This document shows, in pieces, positions 5,606 to 45,526 of a DNA stretch of 45,689 nucleotides (its first letter is position 1; each line of letters begins with the position of its first letter). A program made the translations under genes and the position numbers. The notes beneath the pieces were generated by a model. The model had not been told where the DNA came from, searched no databases, and worked only from the letters and a program-made list of their open reading frames with translations. Source of the stretch: a virus; UHGV virus genome UHGV-0116669. One strand, given 5' to 3'.

Positions 5606-6283
5606 TCATGGAATATTCAATATCTTAGCATCGACTACAACCCCTACAATCCTACAGTTTCCGTTAATTTCAATCATCGGATACTGTGGGTTTAAGGGCT
5701 TCAGGAAGCGCCTTCCAGCATCAATTACTAACTTTTTGAAAGTGGCTTCATTATCGCCTTCCAACTTGGCCACAACCAATTTCCCATTAATAGGCTCTAC
5801 TTCAGGATCAACCAGGATAGCTGCACCTTCAGGAATGCTAAGGCCGACAGGAGATGTCATAGAATCGCCGTGGACATCTAACCAGAAAGAATCGTCAGAG
5901 CATTCGACGGTTGTTTCATACCAGCGGTCAATCGCTCTACGGTGATAAGGCTCCACTGCTTCCATCCACTGTCCGGCACTAACCCAGCTGATCACTGGGT
6001 AGCTCCCCTGAGGGGTATTTACTGATCTGAATGTTACGTTCGTGTGGTTCTCTTTGGCATGTAACGTATCCATCCAGCCGAAAGGCAGATTGAGTGCAGA
6101 TTCAATTCTACGAGCCATTTTATCGCCGATGTTTCTATGAGGTTTATCACCTATCAGCTGACTCAGCGCTGCTGGGCTTGTATCGATAAGCTCTGCAAAT
6201 TGAGCCTTGTTCAGGCCTGCATCTACACGCTGCTGTTCGATCAAGTTCTCCAGATTCGCTTTTCTAATCTCTTTATTTTCCAT
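5606..6283 (-). CDS. cI: cI-like prophage repressor (XRE HTH plus S24 LexA-like autopeptidase domain)
   Basis: Start placed at the in-frame ATG giving MENKEIRKANL...; HTH motif QFAELIDTSPAALSQL; C-terminal GDSM serine and FKKL lysine of the S24 dyad are both present. Confidence 0.75.
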   Translation of the reverse strand: MENKEIRKANLENLIEQQRVDAGLNKAQFAELIDTSPAALSQLIGDKPHRNIGDKMARRIESALNLPFGWMDTLHAKENHTNVTFRSVNTPQGSYPVISWVSAGQWMEAVEPYHRRAIDRWYETTVECSDDSFWLDVHGDSMTSPVGLSIPEGAAILVDPEVEPINGKLVVAKLEGDNEATFKKLVIDAGRRFLKPLNPQYPMIEINGNCRIVGVVVDAKILNIP

Positions 6284-6300
6284 CTGCTCATTTTTGTCAT

Positions 6301-6319
6301 TTTTAGCAGAATGATAAAT
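6301..6319. promoter_or_regulatory. operator OR3-like site TTTTAGC-N5-GATAAAT (12/14 to the palindrome), adjacent to the cI start
   Basis: Matches the ATTTAGC-N5-GCTAAAT consensus; a further candidate site at 6317-6335. Confidence 0.4.
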
Positions 6320-6340
6320 ATGCAAATTGCTAAATCTTTC

Positions 6341-6369
6341 TTGATTAGTATTTAGCATAACGCTAAACT
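6341..6369 (+). promoter_or_regulatory. candidate pR: -35 TTGATT (6341-6346), 17-bp spacer, -10 TAAACT (6364-6369)
   Basis: Hexamers and spacing sit upstream of the cro-like gene; operator OR1 overlaps the spacer and -10. Confidence 0.45.
6350..6368. promoter_or_regulatory. operator OR1, ATTTAGC-ATAAC-GCTAAAC (13/14 palindrome)
   Basis: Same palindrome family as OL1. Confidence 0.55.
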
Positions 6370-6398
6370 CCATTTTAAATAAGTCACGGGGAGGTCCC

Positions 6399-6632
6399 AT
6401 GAGTAATGAACTTTTACGCTGGCGAAAAGATGCCAGCACAGGCGAGTGGGCTCAGTTGGCAAAACTGGCAAACACAACCGTTGGTTATCTGGATCAAATC
6501 GCCTATGGAAACCGTCGGGCATCGCCTGAGAAGGCAGAGGCAATAGAAGAGGCCACCAAAGGGTTTAGCCATTACCAACCAGTATCAAAAGAGAGCCTTG
6601 TTTTTTCACGTCCGCGATGTTCCGCGGCTTAA
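6399..6632 (+). CDS. cro: Cro-like / YdaS-type HTH regulator
   Basis: 77 aa; divergent from cI; strong RBS GGGGAGG; HTH-like EWAQLAKLANTTVGYLDQIAYG. Confidence 0.55.
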   Translation: MSNELLRWRKDASTGEWAQLAKLANTTVGYLDQIAYGNRRASPEKAEAIEEATKGFSHYQPVSKESLVFSRPRCSAA

Positions 6633-6650
6633 CAACAGGAAATATCACAA

Positions 6651-6971
6651 ATGCAAAGCGCAATAGCCCGAAAGTTAGAACCGCCAATCCTCAACCCGAT
6701 TGAGATAGAAGGCATTTTGCTAAACCGCCTTTTATCCATTGGCCAGAAGGTTTTTGCAGAAATGCGGGGGGTGAGCGAGTCAACAATCAGTCGCCGGAAG
6801 AGTGAAGGTTATTACGCCGAAATGGCGAAAGAAATATCAGTGCTGGGCCTGCAGGTTGTTCCACCGGAGGCGGTGGTAGTTTCCCGCCACTACCTGCAGT
6901 CAGTTGAGACGCTTGCTGATATCGGATTACGTGCAGAGCGGTGCCGACCAGGACCGTTGGGATGGGACTAA
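6651..6971 (+). CDS. cII: CII-family transcriptional activator
   Basis: 106 aa; GQKVFAEMRGVSESTISRRK resembles phage CII HTH proteins; sits after cro. Confidence 0.6.
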   Translation: MQSAIARKLEPPILNPIEIEGILLNRLLSIGQKVFAEMRGVSESTISRRKSEGYYAEMAKEISVLGLQVVPPEAVVVSRHYLQSVETLADIGLRAERCRPGPLGWD

Positions 6972-7057
6972 TGAAGGGCAGAAAAGGCGAAAGCCGCAGT
7001 GGGCAAACACTAACGGCTTTCTACGCGAATTAACTGGATCAATTCACAGGAGTAATT

Positions 7058-7204
7058 ATGCCTAAGAGCAACAGATTTTACCAGGCACAAACACACAAAA
7101 ATGTTACCCGCGATCGCTTCATTCGCTCGGTTAACCCGGTGGTTGGCATGAAAATGCGCGCCATCCTGGAAGAGCTGAAACGGAAGGAGGAAGGCCGTGA
7201 GTAA
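7058..7204 (+). CDS. small basic protein (48 aa), translationally coupled to the O-like gene
   Basis: AGGAG RBS 7 nt upstream; MPKSNRFYQAQTHKNVTRDRFIRSVNPVVGMKMRAILEELKRKEEGRE; overlaps the GTG of the next gene (GTGAGTAA). Confidence 0.3.
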   Translation: MPKSNRFYQAQTHKNVTRDRFIRSVNPVVGMKMRAILEELKRKEEGRE

Positions 7205-15989: not shown

Positions 15990-16065
15990 GCTGGTTTAGC
16001 TCAGCAGGTAGAGCGCCTGCCTTGTAAGCAGGATGTCGGCGGTTCGATTCCGTCAACCAGCACCA
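15990..16065 (+). tRNA. tRNA-Thr (anticodon UGU)
   Basis: Cloverleaf folded by hand: acceptor GCTGGTT/AACCAGC, D-arm GCTC/GAGC, anticodon stem CCTGC/GCAGG with loop CTTGTAA, T-arm GGCGG-TTCGATT-CCGTC, encoded CCA. Confidence 0.8.
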
Positions 16066-16070
16066 ATTCA

Positions 16071-16147
16071 GCGCCATTAGCTCAACCGGAGAGAGCAATA
16101 GCCTTCTAAGCTATCGGTTTCAGGTTCGAGTCCTGAATGGTGCGCCA
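16071..16147 (+). tRNA. tRNA-Arg (anticodon UCU)
   Basis: Acceptor GCGCCAT/ATGGTGC (one G-U pair), anticodon stem ATAGC/GCTAT with loop CTTCTAA, T-arm TCAGG-TTCGAGT-CCTGA, encoded CCA. Confidence 0.8.
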
Positions 16148-31343: not shown

Positions 31344-31564
31344 AAATCCCCTTATCCGTTCCTGAAGATTCAGATCGCGGCTTCATACAGTATGCGAATG
31401 TACCGCGCACCATCGCCGCGGTGATCTCCGGGAAAATGGCGACACTCCACGAACTGGACACCGTATACAGCGTCCAGGATATGTGGTGGCTGATTGAAAT
31501 AATGACCGTGGATAACACCAACAGAGCCATAGCGGAGAGTGATCATGGCAGCAACGGTAATTGA
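31320..31564 (+). other. putative -1 programmed-frameshift extension of the tail assembly chaperone (GT-like fusion), open to TGA at 31562-31564
   Basis: The -1 frame stays open from before the chaperone stop through 31564; encoded ...ELDTVYSVQDMWWLIEIMTVDN...; possible slip at GCTTTTG (31317-31323). Confidence 0.4.
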
Positions 31565-33470
31565 CGCCCTCCTGGTGACGCTGGGCCTTGATGCTTCTCA
31601 GTTCCGCAAAGGCCAGCAGGAAGTCAGTGACGACCTGAAAAAGCAGCGCGAAGACGCCAAAAACACCGCCAAGGAAATGGCGGAGCAGGGCAAGAAAGCC
31701 GCTTCGTTCTTCAGCAGCATAAAGACGGAGCTGCTGGCACTGACTGGCGTTACCGTCACTGCTGGCGGCCTGATAAGCTTTGTGAAAAGCACCACTTCCG
31801 GCCTTATGGATTTGTCGATCCAGTCGAAAGCGCTGGGGCTATCGGCCCGTGAGCTTGACGGTTGGTCAAAGTCAGCAGAGGCAGCGGGGAGTTCAGCTGA
31901 GAAGATAAGCGCTTCTCTGCAGGGATTTCAGGGCGCCATACAGGGCGCGAGGGTCGGCGATTACAGTAGCTCTATTTTTGGTGGTCTGGCGCAATTAAAT
32001 GCGCTAACAGGCCAGAATTTTGACGTGTGGGGACAGGACGCCAGTTCTCTGGCCAAAACATCCCTTGATGCGCTACGGAAAATCAGCGATCCAAACCTTC
32101 GCCGGCAGGTCGGGTTAAGTCTTGGATTTGATGATGCAACCTTGCAGCGTAATCAGGAAGGGAAATTCCTGCCTGACGTTGATCGCCTGACTAAAAACTC
32201 AGGGATTTCTGATGAGTCAATAAACGGGGCCAAGGAATTCAATTCTGCATGGGCTGAATTAAACCAGAACCTTGATACCACAAAAAACCAGTTTTATACC
32301 TTCCTGATCCCGTATGTCCGCGAGTTCAATGGCGTACTTCTTCAGTTATCAAACTGGATGAAATCTCATCCAGATGAGATGAGACAAAAAGTCGAGTCCT
32401 TTTTTGGAGCCATTGAGAGCGGAGCTAAGGTGGCAGATAACGCTGCGAGATCTGTTGGTGGTTGGGAAAACGCGATCAAGCTACTCATAGGCTTAAAGGT
32501 TGCGACATGGGTGATGGGAATCACAAAGGCTTTTACTGGATTGTTCGCCCTCACACCACCTGCGTGGTTTGTCGCTGCCAGTGCTGTGGGGGTAGGGGCT
32601 TATCAGAACATATCGAATGCCGCAACCAAAGCAGACCATACTGATTCTCTTTGGGAGTCAATAAAACAGCGCTGGTCTGCAGGTGGTTGGTATAACAACC
32701 AGCAAAATATACAAGCTGTATCACCAGAGCAAAGGAAGAAAGATCAGGATGAGCGCTCATTCTGGGAATCAACTAAAAATCTTCTTTCACAGGCTGTGAA
32801 TGCATTAATTTCTCCGGCTGGGGCAGCATCCATGCAGCCAAATATTGTTGGCGGCTACCAGCCCAACGTTCCGCTTAACGCGCAGGCCGCTCGCCTTGGC
32901 GCCAAAGGAAGGGCATTTCTTCAGGCAATGGCTGGCGAGTTTGGTGCGCTGGAGGGTAAATATGGACTCCCCGCTGGGCTGCTGTCTTCGGTGGCTGGTA
33001 CTGAATCAGGTGGTGACCCGTTCGCAGTATCCCCCAAAGGGGCGAAAGGCCCATTCCAGTTTATGGATGGAACTGCCAGAGATTTGGGTTTGAAGGGGAT
33101 GGACGTTTATGACCCCCACAAGTCAGCTGATGCCGCTGCAAGATACTTGCGCTATCTGCTGGATGCTACTGGTGGCGATCTGGAAAAAGCCCTTGCCTCC
33201 TATAACTGGGGGCTCGGAAACGTCCAGAAGAAAGGCATGGATAACCTGCCGTCGGAAACTCGCAATTACGTCCCAAAAGTCATGGCCGGAATGCGCCCCG
33301 GCGCCGGGATGGCTGTAGACCGCTCGATGCCCGGGCAGTCCGGTGCGACTTATCAGTTTTATGGCACCAAAATCACCACCCAGGCCCAGAACGTGGAACA
33401 GCTTACCAGCGACATCAAAAAGCACGGCGACAACCGTGTCATGCTTTTGGCTGGCTACTCAGGACAATAA
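31539..33470 (+). CDS. tail tape measure protein with a C-terminal lytic transglycosylase (SLT) domain
   Basis: 643 aa, Ala/Gly-rich and helical; C-terminal AGTESGGDP...GAKGPFQFM...YNWG resembles SLT catalytic motifs. Confidence 0.7.
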   Translation: MIMAATVIDALLVTLGLDASQFRKGQQEVSDDLKKQREDAKNTAKEMAEQGKKAASFFSSIKTELLALTGVTVTAGGLISFVKSTTSGLMDLSIQSKALGLSARELDGWSKSAEAAGSSAEKISASLQGFQGAIQGARVGDYSSSIFGGLAQLNALTGQNFDVWGQDASSLAKTSLDALRKISDPNLRRQVGLSLGFDDATLQRNQEGKFLPDVDRLTKNSGISDESINGAKEFNSAWAELNQNLDTTKNQFYTFLIPYVREFNGVLLQLSNWMKSHPDEMRQKVESFFGAIESGAKVADNAARSVGGWENAIKLLIGLKVATWVMGITKAFTGLFALTPPAWFVAASAVGVGAYQNISNAATKADHTDSLWESIKQRWSAGGWYNNQQNIQAVSPEQRKKDQDERSFWESTKNLLSQAVNALISPAGAASMQPNIVGGYQPNVPLNAQAARLGAKGRAFLQAMAGEFGALEGKYGLPAGLLSSVAGTESGGDPFAVSPKGAKGPFQFMDGTARDLGLKGMDVYDPHKSADAAARYLRYLLDATGGDLEKALASYNWGLGNVQKKGMDNLPSETRNYVPKVMAGMRPGAGMAVDRSMPGQSGATYQFYGTKITTQAQNVEQLTSDIKKHGDNRVMLLAGYSGQ

Positions 33471-35486: not shown

Positions 35487-36063
35487 CCAGACCCCTGAGA
35501 GTGTGTCATCGCAGGGTAACGCCATATTATCGCTGCTACATTCAGCGCTGAAAGGAATGACGTTTGTTGATATTGTTCTGGTTAGGGAGGTTGAAGGCGA
35601 TGTGTTGACCGTTCTCCCCCTGGTTAATGATGTAGACGTTTCAGGCCGGGCCATTGCCAATCAGGACGTTTACCAGATCCCATACCTCAGACTTCAGGCG
35701 GGAAACAGCGCGGTAAAAATGGAGCCAAGGCCAGGAGACATTGGTCTGGTTGTTATCTGCGACAAGGACACCACGAACGTTAGGGAAACCAGATCAGAGG
35801 GGCCCGCACCAACTCAGCGCCGCCACTCGTATTCCGATGCGATGTACATAACCGCAATAGCCAGCATGAATGGGGAACCTACTGAATTTGCTGAATTTAC
35901 TGGAAGTGGCATAAATATAAAAAGCCCTGGCGTGGTTAACATCAATGGCTTGAAAGTCCACTCAGATGGCAAACTTGAGCTTGTCGATGGCTCTATCGTT
36001 GATGGGCATGACCATGGCGGGGTAATATCAGGTGGAAGCCGAACCGATCCCCTGGAGCCGTGA
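35470..36063 (+). CDS. baseplate spike protein (gpV / Mu gp45-like)
   Basis: 197 aa; position; C-terminal Gly/His-rich tip DGHDHGGVISGG. Confidence 0.5.
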   Translation: MKMLTNQTPESVSSQGNAILSLLHSALKGMTFVDIVLVREVEGDVLTVLPLVNDVDVSGRAIANQDVYQIPYLRLQAGNSAVKMEPRPGDIGLVVICDKDTTNVRETRSEGPAPTQRRHSYSDAMYITAIASMNGEPTEFAEFTGSGINIKSPGVVNINGLKVHSDGKLELVDGSIVDGHDHGGVISGGSRTDPLEP

Positions 36064-36851
36064 TGAAAAAATTAATAGTCATTTCAGCATTTATCCTTTT
36101 TGCCTTATCTCCGCCAGCCATATCAAAGCAGATAACATCACATTTAAAAATGGTTGATGGCTATTTTAATGGAATTCTCACGGCAAATGATGACGAGCCG
36201 ATATGGTTTGGTATCTTAGAGTTTGACTTTTTGGGCGGCCAGCACCTAACCTGCAGAATGGACTCAATGCATACCTCCGGAGATGCGCCGGACAGGATGT
36301 CGTCAGTTAACTACCGTTGCCAAAACGGGTTTTCTGTCCAGCTATCAAAAAAAGAAAATGAAAGGTACGCTACTTTAAGCCTACAAAACATAAACTTCGA
36401 CAGTGGCGATGAAAGGCAGTTAGGTAGTTACAAGGTTACCTCTTCAATCCCTTTAACGATGATTGAAAATAATAAATATAATGATGATTTGTTCAATAAG
36501 AGGAACTCCGAGAGGGAGCGATGGATAAAGGAAAATACTGTTGACGTTTTTTCAGCGTGCGACATTATTATGTCATCCCACCTTCTGGCTTATCAAATGG
36601 TAAATACTGGAACACAAAATAACAGCGCAGGCAGGAATGAAATAAGGGATGCGCTGTCAAAACTTTACCCAAAAAATGCGGATGAAATGGCTCAATCCTT
36701 TATAAGCTTTCACTCTGGAGACAAAGAGCCTTTCGGGATGCCGCTTACATTTGGAGTTAAGGGGCGCATGATTAAAATGTGCATGGATCAGCCTGGTGAT
36801 TACATTCCTGAGTTTGGCTCGCTGGTCATGTCAGGTAAAATATTCAGATAA
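36063..36851 (+). CDS. secreted/periplasmic protein of unknown function (low-GC moron)
   Basis: Signal peptide MKKLIVISAFILFALSPPAISKQ; markedly AT-rich codons compared with flanking genes; own terminator; interrupts the baseplate cluster. Confidence 0.5.
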   Translation: MKKLIVISAFILFALSPPAISKQITSHLKMVDGYFNGILTANDDEPIWFGILEFDFLGGQHLTCRMDSMHTSGDAPDRMSSVNYRCQNGFSVQLSKKENERYATLSLQNINFDSGDERQLGSYKVTSSIPLTMIENNKYNDDLFNKRNSERERWIKENTVDVFSACDIIMSSHLLAYQMVNTGTQNNSAGRNEIRDALSKLYPKNADEMAQSFISFHSGDKEPFGMPLTFGVKGRMIKMCMDQPGDYIPEFGSLVMSGKIFR

Positions 36852-36890
36852 AAATCTCTTATTTATAAACCACAGTAATTAAACAATAGA

Positions 36891-36913
36891 CCTCGCTTCG
36901 GCGGGGTTTTTTT
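36891..36913 (+). terminator. rho-independent terminator (CCTCGC-TTCG-GCGGGG plus T7)
   Basis: Hairpin plus T-run after the moron. Confidence 0.6.
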
Positions 36914-36926
36914 ATGGGCGAAATCC

Positions 36927-37283
36927 ATGAAAACAATATCTCTCAAACTCGATCCCGACACCTGGGATCTTGTCCTTGATGAGCTGGGTAATATCGCCAC
37001 GGTTGAAAATCCCTACGCCTGCGCTCAGGACGTGGCGACGGCATGCCTGGCCATACGCGGCGAGTGCATTTACGAAAAAGACACCGGCGTTAATTACAAA
37101 GAGCTTCTGAACGTTAAGGCCAGCACCGGCGCCATGGCGGCCGCGCTTCAGGTTGAAGCGTTGCGGATGAGCTATATCGCGCGCGCTGAGCCGACGCTGA
37201 TTAACAACCGCGATACGCGCCGCACTACCGGCGTTATTGCGATCGTGGATACCAACGGCCTGGATTCCAGCGTCACCCTGTGA
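36927..37283 (+). CDS. baseplate wedge protein (gp25/GpW-like)
   Basis: 118 aa, immediately upstream of the baseplate J gene. Confidence 0.45.
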   Translation: MKTISLKLDPDTWDLVLDELGNIATVENPYACAQDVATACLAIRGECIYEKDTGVNYKELLNVKASTGAMAAALQVEALRMSYIARAEPTLINNRDTRRTTGVIAIVDTNGLDSSVTL

Positions 37284-37290
37284 GGAAAAA

Positions 37291-38523
37291 ATGACGACAA
37301 TCTCTACGGCGGTACCGGCCGTGACATTTTCCACCACTGGCCTTGATGTTCCAGATGAGGGAGACATTCTTGCCGGGCGTATAGCAGATATTGGTTCTGC
37401 ATTCGGGACGGCGATGAGCACGAACCTCAAGACGCCGCAGGGGCAACTGGCGGTCACTGATACTGCAATCATCGCAGACAAGAATGATCAGCTTCTGGCT
37501 ATCGTCAACAACATGAACCCGGACTTTTCCTCCGGCAGATTTCAGGATGGCATCGGTAGGATTTACTTCCTCGATCGCATTGCTGCTGCGGGTACGGTTG
37601 TAACAGCCACATGCTCCGGCGTACCGGGAACGGTGATCCCGGCACAGTCCTATGCAACCGACGATAACGGTTATATGTACGTGTCCCTGGCAGCAGGAAC
37701 GATAGGCGCCGACGGGACGGTAAAGATCGAGTTCCAGAACCTGACTACCGGGCCGATAGCTTGTCCCATCGGTACCCTGACAAACATCTATGTCGCGGTA
37801 AGTGGCTGGTCGAGTATCACCAACGAGACCGCGGGTGTGCCGGGCTCGAATGTTGAAGGGAGATCTGCATTTGAGTATCGCCGTCGCCAGTCAGTGGCAC
37901 GTAACGCCTTCAACACGGCAGCGGCTGTGCGGGCTTCCGTTCTGGAAGTCGACGGGGTGCTTGATGTTTATGTCATCGACAACAAAGAGCCCACTTCTGT
38001 CGAAAAAGGTTCCACGAATTACACGCTGCTTGCCAGCTCGATTTATATCGGGGTTTATGGCGGGGCAGTGGCAGACATTGCAGCGGCCATCAATAAAAAA
38101 CTTCCCCCGGGCACCGTTATGAACGGTGACACCACCGGGACCGTGCAGGATACCGAAAATTATGACGCCCCTTATCCGGAGTACACTTACAGGTGGAAAA
38201 CGCTGGACGCGGTGAGTGTTCATATCAAGGTGGAATACGAGGCGAATGATGGCCTTCCGTCAGATATCAACGAGCAGATCAGAACGGTCGTCCTGAATGC
38301 CTTCACCGGAGCAGATGGCGGTACCCGGGCGCGTGCCGGCGCGCGAATTTATGGCAGCCGGTATATCGGACCTATCCAAGCGCTTGATGCACAGAACATG
38401 AACGTTCTTTCTGTCCAGGTCTCTCTGGACGGAACCACCTGGTCTAGTGCGCTGACTATGGGGATAGATCAGGAGCCGACTCTCGATGCGACAAACATCA
38501 TAACGGAGGCGGTAAGTGAATAA
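37291..38523 (+). CDS. baseplate J-family protein
   Basis: 410 aa from the ATG with GAGGAAAAA RBS; size and position typical of Baseplate_J. Confidence 0.65.
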   Translation: MTTISTAVPAVTFSTTGLDVPDEGDILAGRIADIGSAFGTAMSTNLKTPQGQLAVTDTAIIADKNDQLLAIVNNMNPDFSSGRFQDGIGRIYFLDRIAAAGTVVTATCSGVPGTVIPAQSYATDDNGYMYVSLAAGTIGADGTVKIEFQNLTTGPIACPIGTLTNIYVAVSGWSSITNETAGVPGSNVEGRSAFEYRRRQSVARNAFNTAAAVRASVLEVDGVLDVYVIDNKEPTSVEKGSTNYTLLASSIYIGVYGGAVADIAAAINKKLPPGTVMNGDTTGTVQDTENYDAPYPEYTYRWKTLDAVSVHIKVEYEANDGLPSDINEQIRTVVLNAFTGADGGTRARAGARIYGSRYIGPIQALDAQNMNVLSVQVSLDGTTWSSALTMGIDQEPTLDATNIITEAVSE

Positions 38524-39103
38524 TGTCGACTGGACGATCTACGCGCAGTACGTGAACTCAACCAGCCTGCGGTCACTGATTGACACCTTTAACGCTTCTG
38601 TAGCGCCAGAGGACTGGATAGACACGTTCTATGACCTCGTATTCAACATCGAGACCTGCGGCGATTACGGTCTGATGTGCTGGGGTAAAATCGTTGATGT
38701 AGAGCGTTTGCTGACTGTGACGCCATCCCAGCAGTTTCTGGGGTTTGGCGAAGCGACCAGCACCCCGGCAGAACTCACCGACCCGCAACCCTTTAACCAG
38801 GCGCCTTTCTATACCGGCGTGCAGGACACGAACACTGTGGTCCTGACCAATGAGGCATACCGTAAGCTGATCATGTGCAAAGCCATGGCAAACATCAGCG
38901 ACTGCACTGTGCCGGTCATGAATCGCATGCTGGTGTACATGTTTGGCGCCAGCGGACGAGCTTACGTGCGTGATGATGGCAACCATGTCATGAGCTACGT
39001 ATTTGAATTCGCCCTGTCAGATGTAGAGTTAGCCATAGTACAGAGTTCCGGGGCGCTTCCTTCCCCTCCCGGAGTAAAAGTAAACATCATTCAGGAGGTC
39101 TGA
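38516..39103 (+). CDS. baseplate/tail protein (gpI-like, DUF2612-like)
   Basis: 195 aa between the J gene and the tail fiber. Confidence 0.45.
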   Translation: MNNVDWTIYAQYVNSTSLRSLIDTFNASVAPEDWIDTFYDLVFNIETCGDYGLMCWGKIVDVERLLTVTPSQQFLGFGEATSTPAELTDPQPFNQAPFYTGVQDTNTVVLTNEAYRKLIMCKAMANISDCTVPVMNRMLVYMFGASGRAYVRDDGNHVMSYVFEFALSDVELAIVQSSGALPSPPGVKVNIIQEV

Positions 39104-39104
39104 A

Positions 39105-40130
39105 TTGAATAATTCAGCCATGCCACTGCGTCTGACGGTGGTCTTTGCCGCGTCTGGCGATCGTAACAGCATTCCTACCGACGCCACCACCGAAACACTG
39201 AATGGGGGAAAGGCATCATTCGATGTTGGCTTCCCCCCAATCACCAGAGTCGCTCTCTCATCAGGCGGGAAACCACCTCAAGGTCAGGATTTTAACGGTA
39301 TATTCTATGAGTCTTTTTTGAGGCACCAGTGGAATCAGGCTGGGGGTGGATATCCATTTGATTCGGCTTATGCAACCGCTATTGGCGGTTACCCAAAAGG
39401 GGCCGTTGTTCCATTTAGCACTCTCGACGGTCTTTGGCTGAACACCCTCAATAGCAACAATGGGACACCTGAAAATACAGGTGGTGGCGCATCAGGGTGG
39501 GTCCCTTTGTCAAGTTATGGTATTTCGTCAATAACTGCATCCGGATCTGCAAATATCACGCTGACTGCCTTGCAGGCATCACGTCCAGAAATAGTTATCA
39601 GCGGAGTGCTAACTGGGAATATTTATTTGTATTTCCCTCCGTGGATTAAAGAATGGAAGGTCACAAATAATACCTCTGGTGGATTTAATGTCGTTTGCAA
39701 AACAATTGGCGGGAGCAATACGGCAACATTATATCCTGCAGGGCGGGGACATATTCACTGCGATGGAACGAATGTTTATTTCGTAGATGCTACCAGTGGC
39801 CCCGGGCAGTCCGGAGGGTTACTTTTTGGGAATGGTGCTCGTCTTGCCTGGGGTTATACGGATGCCAATTGCAATGTTGCTGGGGCCGATGGTGAATACG
39901 AAACGGATAACATTTTTGTTACCCCAACGTTTACAACCAGCGACGGGGTATTTGGATTTAATACCATCTGTTCGGTAAAAGTGATGCCGGTTGATATTTC
40001 TGGGGTCGGACAGAATGAACGCTCATGGCTTATGGACTCGACGTTTTCAGGAAATGGTTTTTCATTTCGTTCTGCATGCAAGACGCAGAACGCAACCATT
40101 AGAACTCGCTGGGAAGTAATAGGATTCTGA
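39105..40130 (+). CDS. tail fiber protein
   Basis: N-terminal LNGGKASFDVGFPPITRVALSSGGKPPQGQDFNGIFYESFLRHQWNQAGG is a typical fiber N-terminal attachment domain; AT-richer than neighbours. Confidence 0.65.
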   Translation: MNNSAMPLRLTVVFAASGDRNSIPTDATTETLNGGKASFDVGFPPITRVALSSGGKPPQGQDFNGIFYESFLRHQWNQAGGGYPFDSAYATAIGGYPKGAVVPFSTLDGLWLNTLNSNNGTPENTGGGASGWVPLSSYGISSITASGSANITLTALQASRPEIVISGVLTGNIYLYFPPWIKEWKVTNNTSGGFNVVCKTIGGSNTATLYPAGRGHIHCDGTNVYFVDATSGPGQSGGLLFGNGARLAWGYTDANCNVAGADGEYETDNIFVTPTFTTSDGVFGFNTICSVKVMPVDISGVGQNERSWLMDSTFSGNGFSFRSACKTQNATIRTRWEVIGF

Positions 40131-40131
40131 T

Positions 40132-42558
40132 ATGGCAACTACAGACACCCAACAGGCCGCGCAATTTTCTGCTGAGGCAGCAGTTAGTGCTGCCGAAGCA
40201 AAACAATATTTAATTGAAGCTCAGCAGGGATACCAGGACACAAGCGAAGCCGCGCAGGAAGCGAAAAATGCAGCTGAATCAGCTTCGTCATCGGAACAAA
40301 ATGCAGCTACCTCAGAAGCTAATGCGTTACAGTCAGCTACAGAGGCTAGCGCAGCAAGGGACGAGGCTGTGGTTGCAGCATCAACCGCGTCAGAATTCGG
40401 CGACAATAAATTCACTTTCTACAAAACCTCAAGTGACCCGGATGGAACGATAGCGGGTCTGGCAGCTACAACCAATGGGCAGTCGTTTCGTGTAGCTCAG
40501 GGTGTAGATGGAACTGATGCTTTCATTACCTACCAGAACGACAATGGCGTGGCTGTGGCTCAAGCCGCACAGCCTGGGACTGCAGCTATCACTGGTACAG
40601 TGAGGGAATATTCTACACTCTCGCTTGCTGAAAACGATGTTGCGGCTGGGAATATTCTTGATGGTTCAAAATGCTGGGTCGCAAATGATAATCTCGTTCT
40701 CTCCGATGAATATATCAATAACGGTGGGACGTTAGAGAAAACAGGCAGGACGGCAACATCTAAAGAATATATTGATAATTTAATTTATCTGGAAGTTGCC
40801 AGGATAATGGCGTCTGGAGCAGCGCAAACTGCCAGTATTTATCCCGATATTGCACAATTAACTCTGGACGAAGTAGGTCACGCAACATACAGGCGCTTGT
40901 CAGATGGAACCAGCCAATTTCCTGCTCTGATGGTTGGCGCTGAGATTGAGTTTGTGCAACTGGAAGGCGGTGGATTTGTCTGTCAAAGGCGTGCCACTGG
41001 CGAAGAAATATTTAATATTTCTTCGCTGGGTTACATTACTAATGGAAACCTGACTTCGTGGTTTACAGATGATGAAAGTATCAGTGACTATTCTGAAATT
41101 CACATGGATCCACAGGGCCGGATTTACCGAAGGGTGCGCAGGGATGGTACCGTTGAGCAGGTGGGCGATGACACACCTGATGATGACGCCTCTGAATTCC
41201 CAATGGTTGCTTCAGTAGATGGAAATATCATTGCGGTAGATGGCAGCGATGTAACTCAGATCACGAACGACTCCGGAGTTTCAAATATTGCGCCAGTGGC
41301 ATATGCGGAATTTTTGCGTTATTTGTCGAATGTCAGCGGCAACTACATCACTTATCGATCCACTTATGACGGGAATTACCGGGCGCGAGAGTCATTGCGC
41401 TTTCTTGTACACCTGATTATAACTGGCCAGTCTCTTGCTGCAGGCGGCTCAACGCAAGCACAAAGCCCTGTAACGACAACAGCGCAGGCAGATTACGGCA
41501 TACTCTCGTTTGAGACCGGCCCGAAAGTCGATTTTAAGTATGACACGCTGAATGAATCGCTCCTTGAGGCTGTCATCCCATGCCGGGAGAATGCTGGGAC
41601 GCGACCTGGACAGGAGTCGCCATCAAGCGGTATGGCGTTTAAAATTCATGATCTCACCGGGCATACGGTTCTGGTTTCCGATGCGTGCTCATCCGGTACT
41701 GCAATTGCCGACATTTCATCCGGTTCAGCGACTTTTACCGGTGCAACGAAAATGATTCAGTCAGCTGTAGCCATGGCTGAAAAGCTGGGTATGCAGTATG
41801 TTCCCGTAATGGTGCTTATTCACGGTAATCAGAATGCAGCAGCAGGCACATCTATATCCAGTTATCGCGCCGCAATGGAGACTCTCCGTGCTCAGTATGA
41901 GTCTGTCATTAACGCGGCAACAGGAAAAAGACAGTCGCTTCACATGTTTGTCGGCCAGCTATCTAATACCATTCCATACGGCGGAACTGCCGGCACGACC
42001 AAAACCAATAACATCGGTATTGCACAGTACCAGGAGGCCCGTGATAACGCATTAATCCATCTTGCCAGCGCACAGTATGCCCGCCCGTATTCAGACGGTG
42101 AGCATCTGACCAGCGCAGGGTATCGGACAGAAGGCGAAGTTATTGGCGCGGTGGTTGGTGGGTGGCTGAATGACAATACAAAATCCTCTCTCGCGCCGAT
42201 AGAGTCTGGTGTTGTGCAGTCCGGAACCACAATCACTATTCCAGTGGCGGGTTGTGTTGGTGATCTCGTGATTGACACCTCGAGGGTTACCGATCCAGGC
42301 AACTACGGCTTTGTCCTGACCGGGGCCACTATTGCTTCGGTAGCCGTTAGCGGAAGCGGAACAACAGCAAAAATAGTTATCACCAAGACCGATTCTACCA
42401 CTGCGACATTGATATCTTATGCAAGCCAGGGGATTGCCGGACAAAACCCCGGGCCTGTAACTGGTTCACGCGGGTGTATCAGAGATTCCCAAACAGGGAC
42501 GTCACTATCAGGCCTGCCTCTCTATAACGACCTTTGCGTTTTCTCCATTCAGCTTTAA
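40132..42558 (+). CDS. large tail fiber / tail spike with a C-terminal SGNH/GDSL-type esterase-like domain
   Basis: 808 aa; N-terminal Ala/Ser/Glu repeat rod; RFLVHLIITGQSLAAGGS (GQSxxxG esterase motif block) in the C-terminal half. Confidence 0.6.
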   Translation: MATTDTQQAAQFSAEAAVSAAEAKQYLIEAQQGYQDTSEAAQEAKNAAESASSSEQNAATSEANALQSATEASAARDEAVVAASTASEFGDNKFTFYKTSSDPDGTIAGLAATTNGQSFRVAQGVDGTDAFITYQNDNGVAVAQAAQPGTAAITGTVREYSTLSLAENDVAAGNILDGSKCWVANDNLVLSDEYINNGGTLEKTGRTATSKEYIDNLIYLEVARIMASGAAQTASIYPDIAQLTLDEVGHATYRRLSDGTSQFPALMVGAEIEFVQLEGGGFVCQRRATGEEIFNISSLGYITNGNLTSWFTDDESISDYSEIHMDPQGRIYRRVRRDGTVEQVGDDTPDDDASEFPMVASVDGNIIAVDGSDVTQITNDSGVSNIAPVAYAEFLRYLSNVSGNYITYRSTYDGNYRARESLRFLVHLIITGQSLAAGGSTQAQSPVTTTAQADYGILSFETGPKVDFKYDTLNESLLEAVIPCRENAGTRPGQESPSSGMAFKIHDLTGHTVLVSDACSSGTAIADISSGSATFTGATKMIQSAVAMAEKLGMQYVPVMVLIHGNQNAAAGTSISSYRAAMETLRAQYESVINAATGKRQSLHMFVGQLSNTIPYGGTAGTTKTNNIGIAQYQEARDNALIHLASAQYARPYSDGEHLTSAGYRTEGEVIGAVVGGWLNDNTKSSLAPIESGVVQSGTTITIPVAGCVGDLVIDTSRVTDPGNYGFVLTGATIASVAVSGSGTTAKIVITKTDSTTATLISYASQGIAGQNPGPVTGSRGCIRDSQTGTSLSGLPLYNDLCVFSIQL

Positions 42559-42571
42559 AGGACTGTAAATC

Positions 42572-43324
42572 ATGACTACCCGATTTTATGTTGATAACGG
42601 TGTGACAGCCACGCGTTACCTTGACACTTACCCTTATCCAAACGACATCACCCAACTTCCGGCCTTAATACCGGGGATTATCCTGCAGGCTGATTTTGAC
42701 GTAAACGACACTGCATCATTAACCCGAAACCGGGTTGGGGCTGCCATGTCCGTTGTTGGCTCTCCTGCTCTGGGTGATTACGGAGTCAGCCTTACTGAGG
42801 CTAACCACCTTGATACGAACATCGACATAGCAGCATATAACGGCAGCGATCTGACAATGGTGACAATAGCCGTCCATCCAGGGGTAATTGGTGCTGTTGT
42901 GGGCCGGGTGCAGATGAACGCGCCACAGCGTACTCGTGGCACACAAACTACGGCTACAGCGTGGAGAGCTAAATGGTTGACAGCAGCAGGTGCAGCGCAA
43001 CAGGCCGACCTCATACCGTCTAGTGCCGCAACCGATGGCGAAATGGCAGTCAGTCGGTTTGTGCGAAACAACGGTAGCGGATCAATGCTGACTAAGCTTG
43101 ATCTGCCACGCACATCACAGTCAGCAACCGGCACCGCAGCGACGACTCCTTATGCTGTACCTTCGTCAAAAATTCTGCTGGGCGGTTCTGTCGAGGGAGC
43201 CACGACTGCCACTATCTTCATGCGGGCATGCCTGATTGTATCCAGGGCAATAACGGATGCTGAAATGGCGACTATTTACACCTGTTACAAAAACTACTAT
43301 CAGCTGAAAGGCAAAAACATTTAA
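42572..43324 (+). CDS. hypothetical tail-associated protein
   Basis: 250-aa ORF after the fiber genes. Confidence 0.4.
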   Translation: MTTRFYVDNGVTATRYLDTYPYPNDITQLPALIPGIILQADFDVNDTASLTRNRVGAAMSVVGSPALGDYGVSLTEANHLDTNIDIAAYNGSDLTMVTIAVHPGVIGAVVGRVQMNAPQRTRGTQTTATAWRAKWLTAAGAAQQADLIPSSAATDGEMAVSRFVRNNGSGSMLTKLDLPRTSQSATGTAATTPYAVPSSKILLGGSVEGATTATIFMRACLIVSRAITDAEMATIYTCYKNYYQLKGKNI

Positions 43325-43333
43325 GGAGTGCAT

Positions 43334-43528
43334 ATGGCTGGCTATATTGCGGATTATCAGGCGACAAAAAACGGTGAGGTAATTTATTCAGGAACGCTTG
43401 CTGTTGAATCAGAAGGAAATGATGCAGCGATAAAAGAAGCAGTGATGGCGGAGCTGAATGCAATAAATATGAAATTTGGTGGTGGAATACCTGATTCTGT
43501 CACAGTAAATTCATGGTCTGCTGAATAA
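43334..43528 (+). CDS. small hypothetical protein (64 aa)
   Basis: AAGGAG RBS 5 nt upstream of the ATG. Confidence 0.4.
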   Translation: MAGYIADYQATKNGEVIYSGTLAVESEGNDAAIKEAVMAELNAINMKFGGGIPDSVTVNSWSAE

Positions 43529-44365: not shown

Positions 44366-45526
44366 TTACTGGACTGCACGACCATCGATGTAATCAGCCC
44401 ACCACTGCATCATCTCTCTGCGTTTATCCAGATACTGAGCATGGTTGTAAATTCCGCGTATTGACCCGCTGGCGGTGTGCGCGAGTTGTTTTTCAATCGC
44501 GTCCGCTGGCCAGCCATGCTCATTCATTATTGTGCTGAACTGGTGGCGGAATCCATGCCCGCTCGCCAGCCCCTCATAGCCAATCTGTCGAATAACTAAT
44601 AATACGGCATTTTCGCTGATGGGCTTTTTCTTATCATTCCGCCCGGCGAATACAAAAGAGGAAACAGGGCTTGTGATCGGTTTGAGAGTATTCAGGAGAT
44701 TTATTACCTGATCTGACATCGGAACCACATGAACGCGGCGCCCTTTCATTACCTCTTCGTCGATGGTTATCATCCTGTTTTCAAAGTCGACGTTTTCCCA
44801 TTGCATAGAACGGAGTTCTTTTGTACGCAGCGCAGTATATTGCAAAACCTGTGTGGCAATTTTCGAAATAATACTTCCGGAAAAGCCAGATAGCGCGTTA
44901 TTGAATGCTGGTATCTGATCTGCAGGAAGGAAAGGGTAGTTTTTCTTTCTATATCCCTTCATGGCATCAGCAAGGTCAGGAGCCGGATTATATTTGGCCC
45001 TTCCTGTAACGATCGCATACCTGAATACCTCGCCACATCTTCTTCTGGCTTTATTTGCCCTCTCCATTGCCCCACGTTCTTCAAACCTCCGGATCACCTC
45101 CAGTATCTGCATCGGCTCAATGTCCTGTATTTCCAGATATCCGATCATTGGCAGAATATCGTCACGGAACATGCGAGAAAGTTCATCCGCATATCCTTCT
45201 GACCAAACCTGCCGCTTATGGTCGTACCATTCATGATAAATAGCTGAAAATGAATTGTCCTTCACAGACAACTTTTTGGCCTTAACCGGATCGACCCCGA
45301 CAGAAACATCCTTCCTTGCAGTCCACGCTTTATCCCTGGCTTCCTGCAATGACATGAGAGGGTATTTGCCCACAGTCAGCACCTTCTCTTTGCCGTCGAG
45401 CTTATAGCGCAATTGCCACACCTTTTTGCCAGAGACCGGAACGTACAGGTACAGGCCATTGCTGTCGAGCATTCGGTAGGGTTTGTCTTTAGGCTTGGCG
45501 GCCTCTATCTGCTTAACAGTGAGCAT
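44366..45526 (-). CDS. int: tyrosine integrase, P4/CP4-57 type
   Basis: N-terminal MLTVKQIEAAKPKDKPYRMLDSNGLYLYV arm-binding (DUF4102-type) domain; C-terminal catalytic region with R..HxxR..Y. Confidence 0.9.
   Translation of the reverse strand: MLTVKQIEAAKPKDKPYRMLDSNGLYLYVPVSGKKVWQLRYKLDGKEKVLTVGKYPLMSLQEARDKAWTARKDVSVGVDPVKAKKLSVKDNSFSAIYHEWYDHKRQVWSEGYADELSRMFRDDILPMIGYLEIQDIEPMQILEVIRRFEERGAMERANKARRRCGEVFRYAIVTGRAKYNPAPDLADAMKGYRKKNYPFLPADQIPAFNNALSGFSGSIISKIATQVLQYTALRTKELRSMQWENVDFENRMITIDEEVMKGRRVHVVPMSDQVINLLNTLKPITSPVSSFVFAGRNDKKKPISENAVLLVIRQIGYEGLASGHGFRHQFSTIMNEHGWPADAIEKQLAHTASGSIRGIYNHAQYLDKRREMMQWWADYIDGRAVQ

Follow-up and report, generated by a model that had tools for sequence, protein, structure and literature searches.

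Virulent phages carry virion receptor-binding proteins (RBPs) that deacetylate the polysaccharide receptor of the host, or are proposed to do so, and leave the chain uncut. These include G7C gp63.1, Moo19 gp82, B2 gp48/49 and the spikes of ViI, Acinetobacter phage Aristophanes and Pectobacterium phage Possum (PMC11654681, PMC8471582, PMC9569702), and esterase activity has been measured for Moo19 gp82 and B2 gp48/49 (PMC11654681). SGNH esterases are also prevalent among the prophage tailspike enzymes of clinical K. pneumoniae (PMC12115436), and an analysis of 8,105 prophages found SGNH domains among the most prevalent enzyme domains of RBPs (PMC13123978, PLoS Biol 2026). Two fibres described there, 164_08-KL2 (717 aa, with a SASA domain, PF03629, and an HHpred match to SIAE, 8F9O) and 174_38-KL55 (839 aa, with a Lipase_GDSL_2 domain), hydrolyse p-nitrophenyl acetate (pNPA) and do not depolymerise capsule (PMC13123978). 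SGNH RBPs of Mydovirus were termed "capsule surface remodellers" in a 2026 preprint, and the idea of an arms race of acetylation and deacetylation has already been published. Here we analysed the gene at positions 40132..42558 of the virus genome UHGV-0116669, a stretch of 45,689 nucleotides that is referred to as the window, and the 808-aa protein that it encodes.

In a temperate myovirus of Klebsiella pneumoniae, this gene likely encodes a receptor-binding tail fibre of the virion, whose distal tip is an SGNH-superfamily carbohydrate O-acetylesterase of the SASA/CE6/CE20-like kind (residues 420-685) followed by a β-sandwich (residues 686-808). The class itself is known, was recently shown to be common and has been validated in part by experiment. 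What is new is a lineage that is invisible to curated hidden Markov models (HMMs), together with a conserved partner gene predicted to have a lectin fold. A preliminary description of the gene, made from the sequence alone, had regarded esterase RBPs as rarer than lyase or hydrolase tailspikes, which fails for temperate Klebsiella phages given the prevalence of SGNH domains among their RBP enzymes (PMC13123978, PMC12115436). It had also described the protein as a tail spike with an esterase-like domain; such a domain was found, and the overall form is that of a fibre ending in a globular enzymatic tip and not of a β-helix tailspike.

Compared with the described systems, the protein resembles both Klebsiella fibres in host, in being a prophage RBP, and in combining an N-terminal anchor with a C-terminal SGNH tip. 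The 164_08-KL2 fibre is moreover SASA-type with a GQSL block I, and its adaptor residues 64-189 are 33% identical to residues 158-289 of the present protein; it has a direct Pfam SASA match, whereas the present protein has none, and hhalign gave a probability of 17.6% over block I. A direct homologue pair is found in the Mydovirus Klebsiella phage vB_KpnM_VIK251 (VIK251_00051/00050), whose RBP shows 59% identity across residues 108-808 and whose 249-aa protein, encoded downstream of it, shows 68%. VIK251 is unlike the present phage in being a virulent 142-kb myovirus with many RBPs. Both of its genes are annotated "hypothetical protein", and our literature search found no functional data on the pair. 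The virulent-phage esterase spikes named above are alike in the proposed deacetylation of an uncut receptor but differ in showing much weaker fold matches (TMq 0.18-0.41), in belonging to other SGNH subfamilies and in having other spike architectures; G7C gp63.1 was not among the top 50 PDB fold matches.

Results

Domain organization and fold

The open reading frame (ORF) lies exactly where it had been placed earlier, at 40132..42558 (+). It starts with ATG and encodes 808 aa plus a stop codon, with an AGGA Shine-Dalgarno sequence 7 nt 5' of the ORF and the start 1 nt past the stop of the preceding gene. The PHROG tail-fibre family phrog_4201 matches residues 80-807 at 2e-78. The gene and its parts are listed below.

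40132..42558 (+): RBP gene, a tail fibre with a predicted C-terminal acetylesterase module (ORF; PHROG tail-fibre families)
40132..40416 (+): residues 1-95, Ala/Ser/Glu/Gln-rich heptad-periodic segment, putative trimeric coiled-coil rod (composition, period-7 self-similarity)
40417..40821 (+): residues 96-230, adaptor/anchor module common to RBPs with other C-termini (phrog_31000, residues 1-215; phrog_14987, residues 92-230)
40822..41388 (+): residues 231-419, putative linker/shaft region (exchange breakpoints among 108 homologues)
41389..42186 (+): residues 420-685, predicted SGNH/SASA-type carbohydrate acetylesterase domain (AlphaFold2 model, Foldseek, profile matches, dN/dS)
41428..41433 (+): block I TGQS, codons Gln433-Ser434, predicted oxyanion-hole Gln and nucleophile Ser (conservation, model position)
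41821..41835 (+): block III, codons His564-Gly-Asn-Gln-Asn568 (family consensus HGExD)
42094..42105 (+): block V DxxH, codons Asp655-Gly-Glu-His658, predicted triad acid and base (conservation, alignment)
42187..42555 (+): residues 686-808, C-terminal β-sandwich, always accompanying the esterase (all-β in the model, conservation)

Residues 420-808 were modelled with AlphaFold2 (AF2) from a 44-sequence alignment. The model (pLDDT 89.7, pTM 0.91) consists of a domain of alternating β and α elements (420-685) and a following all-β domain (686-808). The strand-helix alternation is that of the SGNH three-layer α/β/α fold, and Foldseek returned 26 PDB matches at E <= 0.001, essentially all of them SGNH esterases. 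These include the Pan3 tailspike (9vyh; 8.8e-21, TMq 0.77), the CE20 acetylesterase XAC1771 (7kmm; 3e-11), the dog sialic-acid esterase SIAE (8f9o; 7e-11), a CE6-like esterase (1zmb; 1e-7), an Arabidopsis esterase (2apj; 2e-7), two CE20 enzymes (9h4u and 9ega; about 1e-6) and NanS (3pt5; 3.5e-5). Tail proteins of the Shigella phages Moo19 (gp82) and B2 (gp48/49) were also matched, and matches among viral models (BFVD) included the Salmonella ViI tailspike and RBPs of Klebsiella KP8, Pectobacterium PP99 and Possum.

The tailspike of the cyanopodophage Pan3 is the best match by both structure and sequence profile. It shares the esterase with a C-terminal β-sandwich, the GQSL, HGE and DxxH blocks and an Ala-rich N-terminal region, and is unlike the present protein in that identity is only 18-19% and the phage is a podovirus of a cyanobacterium; a literature search found no paper on the function of 9vyh or the Pan3 tailspike. 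The CE20 enzymes (XacXaeA/XAC1771, Fl8CE20_II, PpCE20_II), SIAE, the CE6-like 1zmb and 2apj, and NanS are all glycan O-acetylesterases. At 9-15% identity, they have in common with the present protein the SGNH core, a GQS-type block I, the oxyanion Gln and a β-sandwich after the catalytic domain (PMC12313940). Unlike the CE20/SIAE group, the present protein lacks an inserted ancillary domain and its module is fused to a phage fibre. In CE20 the SGNH core is flanked by N- and C-terminal seven-stranded β-sandwiches (PMC12313940); the present model, which covers residues 420-808, has a C-terminal β-sandwich. Block I reads GQSL here and GQSNM in CE20, and block V has the classical DxxH spacing here, in contrast to the DxH of CE20 with its water-mediated triad or dyad (PMC12313940); in these blocks the protein does not carry the CE20 signature.

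The sequence relationships were followed by profiles. A first word-indexed homologue search gave 33 matches, mostly near-identical, and profile iteration was then used. Profile A1, built from residues 420-808 and divergent homologues and searched among 1.84 billion entries, collected 6,123 representative clusters (50% identity) at E <= 0.001 and 3,267 at E <= 1e-30. When family members were scanned singly, Pfam SASA (PF03629) was matched by 28 of 44 diverse relatives at E <= 1 (best 6.5e-12) and by 18 of 30 multidomain members at E <= 0.001, and the member P0154 scored 26.7 bits against a cutoff of 24.8. A wider profile, A2, was compared with PDB sequences by hmmsearch and reached 9vyh (1.6e-24) and 2apj, an Arabidopsis SASA-family esterase (0.011), with the HGE(S)D and D-x-x-H blocks (III and V) aligned in both. 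By these sequence comparisons the 808-aa protein appears as a divergent sister lineage of SASA that is reached transitively, and not as a direct member by the curated test.

The esterase and β-sandwich family, with P0142-P0290 as representatives, is very large and mostly cellular. Its members often stand inside proteins of 1,000-2,500 aa with fn3, PG_binding_1, LysM, SLH, Por_Secre_tail or dockerin domains. Many of them score at or below the Pfam SASA threshold, and the family is therefore poorly covered by curated models.

Predicted catalytic residues

The block RFLVHLIITGQSLAAGGS corresponds to residues 423-440. A bare GQS is uninformative, as a second occurrence is found at residues 116-118, and the significance of the block therefore comes from profile, fold and conservation, not from the motif. 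Conservation was scored in 150 representatives clustered at 50% identity, and in a clade panel made of the query and 108 full-length members that are 75-100% identical in the module. Among ungapped representatives, Gln433 is conserved in 145/147 and Ser434 in 146/147. The counts are 149/151 for Glu495, 150/151 each for His564 and Gly565, 151/151 each for Gln609 and Tyr649, 130/151 (86%) for Asp655 and 150/151 for His658. Within the clade, all thirteen esterase-domain residues checked are invariant (109/109), including Q433, S434, E495, G522, H564, G565, D655 and H658.

In the AF2 model, Ser434 comes directly after strand β1 (424-432) at the N-terminus of the first helix, as expected for SGNH block I, while HGNQN follows a β-strand and DGEH precedes the last long helix. 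The model thus places Ser434 and DGEH at the canonical block I and block V positions, and HGNQN where block III is expected. Block V (D655-G-E-H658) aligns with DNLH of 2apj and DFVH of 9vyh, which is the SGNH block V pattern. Gly522, within S-S-G-T, is the candidate for the oxyanion-hole Gly of block II; it aligns with A-S-G-G-T of 2apj and is invariant in the clade but less than 75% conserved across the wide family. In CE6 and CE20 enzymes, the Gln of GQS(NM) in block I contributes to the oxyanion hole where the SGNH pattern has the Asn of block III, GxND (PMC12313940); the conservation of Gln433 is in keeping with such a role. Ser434 is the predicted nucleophile, which would be activated by His658, itself oriented by Asp655 of the DxxH block. 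As in CE6/CE20, the oxyanion would be held by Gln433 of TGQS together with the backbone of a Gly, probably Gly522. The esterase domain is under purifying selection, with a ratio of nonsynonymous to synonymous substitution rates (dN/dS) of 0.056 against E. coli 20KM2222 and 0.135 against E. coli XJW9B277.

The β-sandwich carries strongly conserved motifs of its own (D715, GF726-727, YA763-764, G781-x-x-R-D785 and L797). Foldseek alignments to XAC1771 and SIAE extend over 415-456 columns, indicating that both domains, the esterase and the β-sandwich, are covered.

Three points of the preliminary description find support here. A C-terminal SGNH-esterase-like domain agrees with the Foldseek matches to carbohydrate acetylesterases and to tailspikes with esterase domains, at E values of 1e-21 to 1e-7; the likeness to GQSN-type sialate O-acetylesterases is reflected in the Pfam SASA matches of relatives and in SIAE and 2apj as structural or profile matches; and the expected Ser/His/Asp set stands at the canonical block I and V positions, with all three residues kept throughout the clade.

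Exchangeable modules

The N-terminal 100 aa had been seen as an Ala/Ser/Glu-rich repeat rod, and the composition of residues 1-100 (A28/S13/E11/Q10/T9) agrees. BLOSUM self-similarity in this region peaks at offsets 7, 14, 21 and 28, with a maximum that was reached by 0/500 shuffles, and no DNA tandem repeat was found beneath the Ala-rich N-terminus by Tandem Repeats Finder (TRF). This heptad-periodic, coiled-coil-like pattern fits an α-helical coiled-coil rod. The rod and the phage-specific anchor module would attach the fibre, most likely a trimer, to the baseplate. Candidate β-hairpin-like internal repeats in residues 236-345 were not significant against shuffles (32 vs 28.4 +/- 4.8) and were rejected.

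The PHROG matches split the protein into N-terminal families (residues 1-215, 4-217 and 92-230) and esterase-spanning families (430-804 and 80-807). The 108 close homologues show 23 distinct lengths from 699 to 847 aa, and exchange breakpoints cluster at about residues 170-210, with more near 290, 340 and 410. High identity to the query starts at about 170-210 in 72 of the 108, and close to residues 290, 340 and 410 in 4, 9 and 10 of them, respectively. Related Klebsiella phages have only residues ~26-280 in common with the protein (50-66% identity), Acinetobacter and Pseudomonas phages only residues 427-808 (24-25% identity), and DNA identity to E. coli begins at about position 40903 of the window. 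The esterase module and the downstream genes were found on four other backbones.

L001: Mu/P2-like E. coli prophage (20KM2222)
L002: virulent 142-kb Mydovirus VIK251
L003: lambda-like E. coli prophage with TipJ (XJW9B277)
L007: E. coli prophage from the family to which the window belongs

A tail/baseplate location, an exchangeable N-terminal attachment part and a C-terminal enzymatic part, as found here, are the features of a phage esterase RBP.

Exchange was also seen inside the module. When window 41389-43324 was compared with L003, the esterase core was 83% identical in amino acids with a dS of 0.91, while the C-terminal β-sandwich was 97.5% identical (dS 0.065) and the ORF of 250 aa that follows the RBP gene 97.2% identical (dS 0.18). 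A diverged core next to a near-identical β-sandwich and 250-aa gene indicates recombination between the catalytic domain and the β-sandwich, and the low dS of the latter two suggests that they travel together.

In L001, the homologous esterase fibre gene has an Acyl_transf_3 (AT3) acyltransferase gene (6017-7108, minus strand; Pfam 4e-15) directly upstream, in divergent orientation. This E. coli locus thus pairs an acetylating conversion gene with a predicted deacetylating RBP, and the window has no equivalent gene.

Downstream gene with a predicted lectin fold

The gene that follows the RBP gene recurs with it.

42572..43324 (+): 250-aa protein with a predicted ConA-like/LamG lectin fold, downstream partner of the esterase RBP (AF2, Foldseek, conserved adjacency)

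The 250-aa ORF had no Pfam, NCBIfam or PDB-sequence match and only one PHROG of unknown function. Its AF2 model (pLDDT 89.7) is a ConA-like/LamG jelly roll, which gave 231 PDB matches at E <= 0.001 in Foldseek with the lectin-like HCN domains of tetanus and botulinum toxins on top. The gene is directly downstream of the esterase RBP in 5/5 other loci examined, across four phage backbones (L001:9670-10422, L002:8104-8853, L003:7667-8419, L004:10441-11193 and L007:5727-6479), and its dN/dS of 0.07-0.09 indicates purifying selection. The first ~25 residues are of low pLDDT yet nearly invariant, which would fit a docking peptide. Laminin_G_3 domains are sometimes fused to the esterase module in cellular homologues (P0032 and 2/30 representatives). 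BLAST of the 250-aa ORF against the LamG-bearing P0032 was not significant (E = 3.6), and only 1/21 homologues of the ORF touched Laminin_G_3, at 0.019. The ConA-like assignment therefore comes from the structure model.

Together, these observations suggest that the 250-aa protein is either a lectin-like subunit in physical association with the fibre or a factor dedicated to assembly, which we regard as a lead and not a result. Adjacency on four backbones, co-inheritance with the β-sandwich, the Laminin_G_3 fusions and the near-invariant N-terminus led us to a more specific and tentative proposal, in which the lectin-fold protein might dock by its N-terminal ~25 residues onto the β-sandwich of the fibre and give it glycan-binding specificity. 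The two genes would then form a mobile cassette of an esterase with a detachable lectin, which Klebsiella and E. coli phages might exchange among myophages, siphophages and virulent Vequintavirinae. As alternatives, this ORF might encode a chaperone for assembly or be unrelated to the gene beside it.

Phage setting

The genes around the RBP gene are those of a phage tail and of a prophage end.

37237..39103 (+): Baseplate J-like wedge and DUF2612 wedge proteins, immediately upstream of the fibre genes (Pfam Baseplate_J 8e-11, DUF2612 2.9e-51; phrog_6, phrog_587)
39105..40130 (+): 341-aa tail fibre, a second, separate RBP candidate (phrog_12796, 1e-86)
44366..45526 (-): tyrosine integrase, the prophage end, ~1.8 kb downstream of the RBP gene (phrog_1, 9e-79; Pfam Phage_integrase in the identical loci L004/L005)

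The window runs from terminase, portal, protease and major head genes through the tail sheath and a tape measure with a transglycosylase domain to the baseplate hub, Baseplate_J and DUF2612 wedge proteins, the 341-aa fibre and the 808-aa protein. Small ORFs of 250, 64, 79 and 105 aa and the tyrosine integrase on the opposite strand follow. The window is a temperate Klebsiella pneumoniae prophage of the myovirus type, and the 808-aa gene belongs to its baseplate/fibre module. The identical 808-aa protein (P0049) was found on at least 22 public K. pneumoniae contigs with constant gene order.

Window positions 16000-39150 are 92-97% identical in DNA to Klebsiella temperate phages, including ST899-OXA48phi17.1, ST15-VIM1phi2.1 and RCIP0114. 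The similarity ends at the start of the fibre genes (~39150), indicating that 39105-43400 is a variable receptor-binding cassette; a promoter and terminator scan of this cassette gave only background levels. The separate upstream fibre at 39105-40130 that had been noted before is confirmed by its tail-fibre PHROG match. Its tblastn similarity to tail fibres of Bcep1-, Burkholderia-, Ralstonia- and Klebsiella-phages spans residues 1-224 only, so its N-terminal part is conserved in Bcep1-like tail fibres and its C-terminal ~115 aa appear, from this comparison, to be a variable tip.

Several other features of the window were observed. Adjacent phage-borne genes for tRNA-Thr (tgt) and tRNA-Arg (tct) lie at 15990-16147 (+). 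The tape-measure-like protein at 31539-33470 (+) has a lytic transglycosylase (SLT) domain in its C-terminal third, as judged from phrog_2013 ("lytic tail protein") and from Pfam SLT in the identical locus L004. Between the baseplate genes, a 263-aa ORF at 36060-36851 (+) has a G+C content of 42%, against 48-56% in its neighbours, and a signal-peptide-like N-terminus. It has no PHROG or Pfam match, is followed by a strong terminator-like hairpin with a T-run (36888-36909), and looks like a moron; its slot is occupied by Arc-family and antirepressor genes in the sister prophages L005 and L006. Integration is beside a Form_Nir_trans (formate/nitrite transporter family) gene, mlaA and a fadL-like (Toluene_X) gene (L004/L005:13721-17085, L007:9866-13715). 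These chromosomal neighbours are the same in K. pneumoniae and E. coli, indicating that the same integrase and attachment region are used across genera.

Discussion

We propose that the tip of this fibre would take O-acetyl groups off an acetylated host surface polysaccharide, either capsule or O-antigen, and leave the chain uncut, on the model of G7C gp63.1 and of the Klebsiella fibres in PMC13123978. By deacetylation the fibre would be able to bind the glycan layer, process it and pass through it during adsorption, as has been shown for G7C gp63.1.

Several observations weigh against this proposal or narrow it. Direct searches of Pfam, NCBIfam and PDB sequences with the 808-aa protein, whole or as residues 420-808, gave no matches, and Pfam SASA (PF03629) was not reached by either even at E <= 1; the esterase assignment depends on profile, fold and transitive homology. 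The esterase domain has no significant BLAST match in the N-terminal ~400 aa of 164_08-KL2, and the two belong to different lineages. Block III of the Klebsiella/E. coli clade reads HGNQN against HGExD in the wider family, and both replacements, E566N and D568N, are clade-invariant. Lastly, K. oxytoca, K. michiganensis, K. variicola and Raoultella carry homologues with 75-100% identity, and the modules of E. coli prophages are 87-95% identical in DNA. With near-identical modules in Klebsiella species, E. coli and Raoultella, the target need not be a K-type-specific capsule.

This last point bears on the substrate. An active esterase might act on O-antigen or another broadly shared enterobacterial glycan, with a host range that is not restricted by K-type, and we consider this possible, though the less likely case. 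Besides the spread of the module over genera, it agrees with the action of G7C gp63.1 and Moo19/B2 on O-antigen acetyl groups (PMC11654681; PMC13123978) and with the finding that SGNH RBP clusters are on average less K-locus-specific than β-helix depolymerases (PMC13123978). The 808-aa protein was also not found among the supplement sequences of that study with five peptide strings, and no K-locus association is available from there. Other SGNH RBPs of Klebsiella prophages are, to the contrary, predictors of KL2, KL8, KL11, KL16, KL24 and KL55 in genome-wide association studies (GWAS) (PMC13123978). A non-capsule substrate would be a variant of the preferred explanation that does not contradict it, and nothing in the present data discriminates between capsule and O-antigen.

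The block III replacements bear on catalysis itself. Loss of the near-invariant family Glu and Asp would suit a non-catalytic, lectin-like domain that recognises an acetylated or other glycan epitope without hydrolysis, as would the score of the query below every curated esterase HMM, and the PLoS Biol study stresses that the activity of prophage RBPs is not reliably predictable from sequence or structure (PMC13123978). We regard such a pseudo-esterase as improbable, since the nucleophile Ser, the oxyanion Gln and the block V His and Asp, which are usually lost in pseudo-enzymes, are invariant in 109/109 clade members and near-invariant family-wide. The dN/dS falls to 0.056, and the block III Glu and Asp are outside the catalytic set described for CE20/CE6 (PMC12313940).

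A polysaccharide depolymerase tailspike (lyase or glycosidase), the type of most characterised Klebsiella phage RBPs, to which the genome position and size of the gene would be typical and which some database records evoke by naming relatives "tail spike", was rejected as most improbable, because no β-helix, pectin-lyase or glycosidase family or fold signal was found anywhere in the protein, its C-terminal 389 residues are fully explained by the SGNH domain and the β-sandwich, residues 231-419 are too short for a β-helix depolymerase domain, and the tested Klebsiella SGNH fibres were inactive as depolymerases on 118 K-types (PMC13123978).

A tail fibre with an O-acetylesterase tip therefore remains the preferred reading of the 808-aa protein. 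All database copies of this protein are annotated "hypothetical protein", because direct Pfam, NCBIfam and PDB-sequence searches find nothing; curated HMMs miss the lineage, and annotation pipelines name it accordingly. Esterase RBPs modify the surface polysaccharide instead of degrading it, which is now thought to be a main host-recognition route of temperate Klebsiella phages, and the O-acetylation state of the polysaccharide is invisible to K-locus typing. The protein is thus relevant to the prediction of prophage host range and could serve to probe acetylation of the capsule or O-antigen or as a tool for work on it, and the lectin-fold partner gene provides a concrete lead on how such fibres may gain their specificity.

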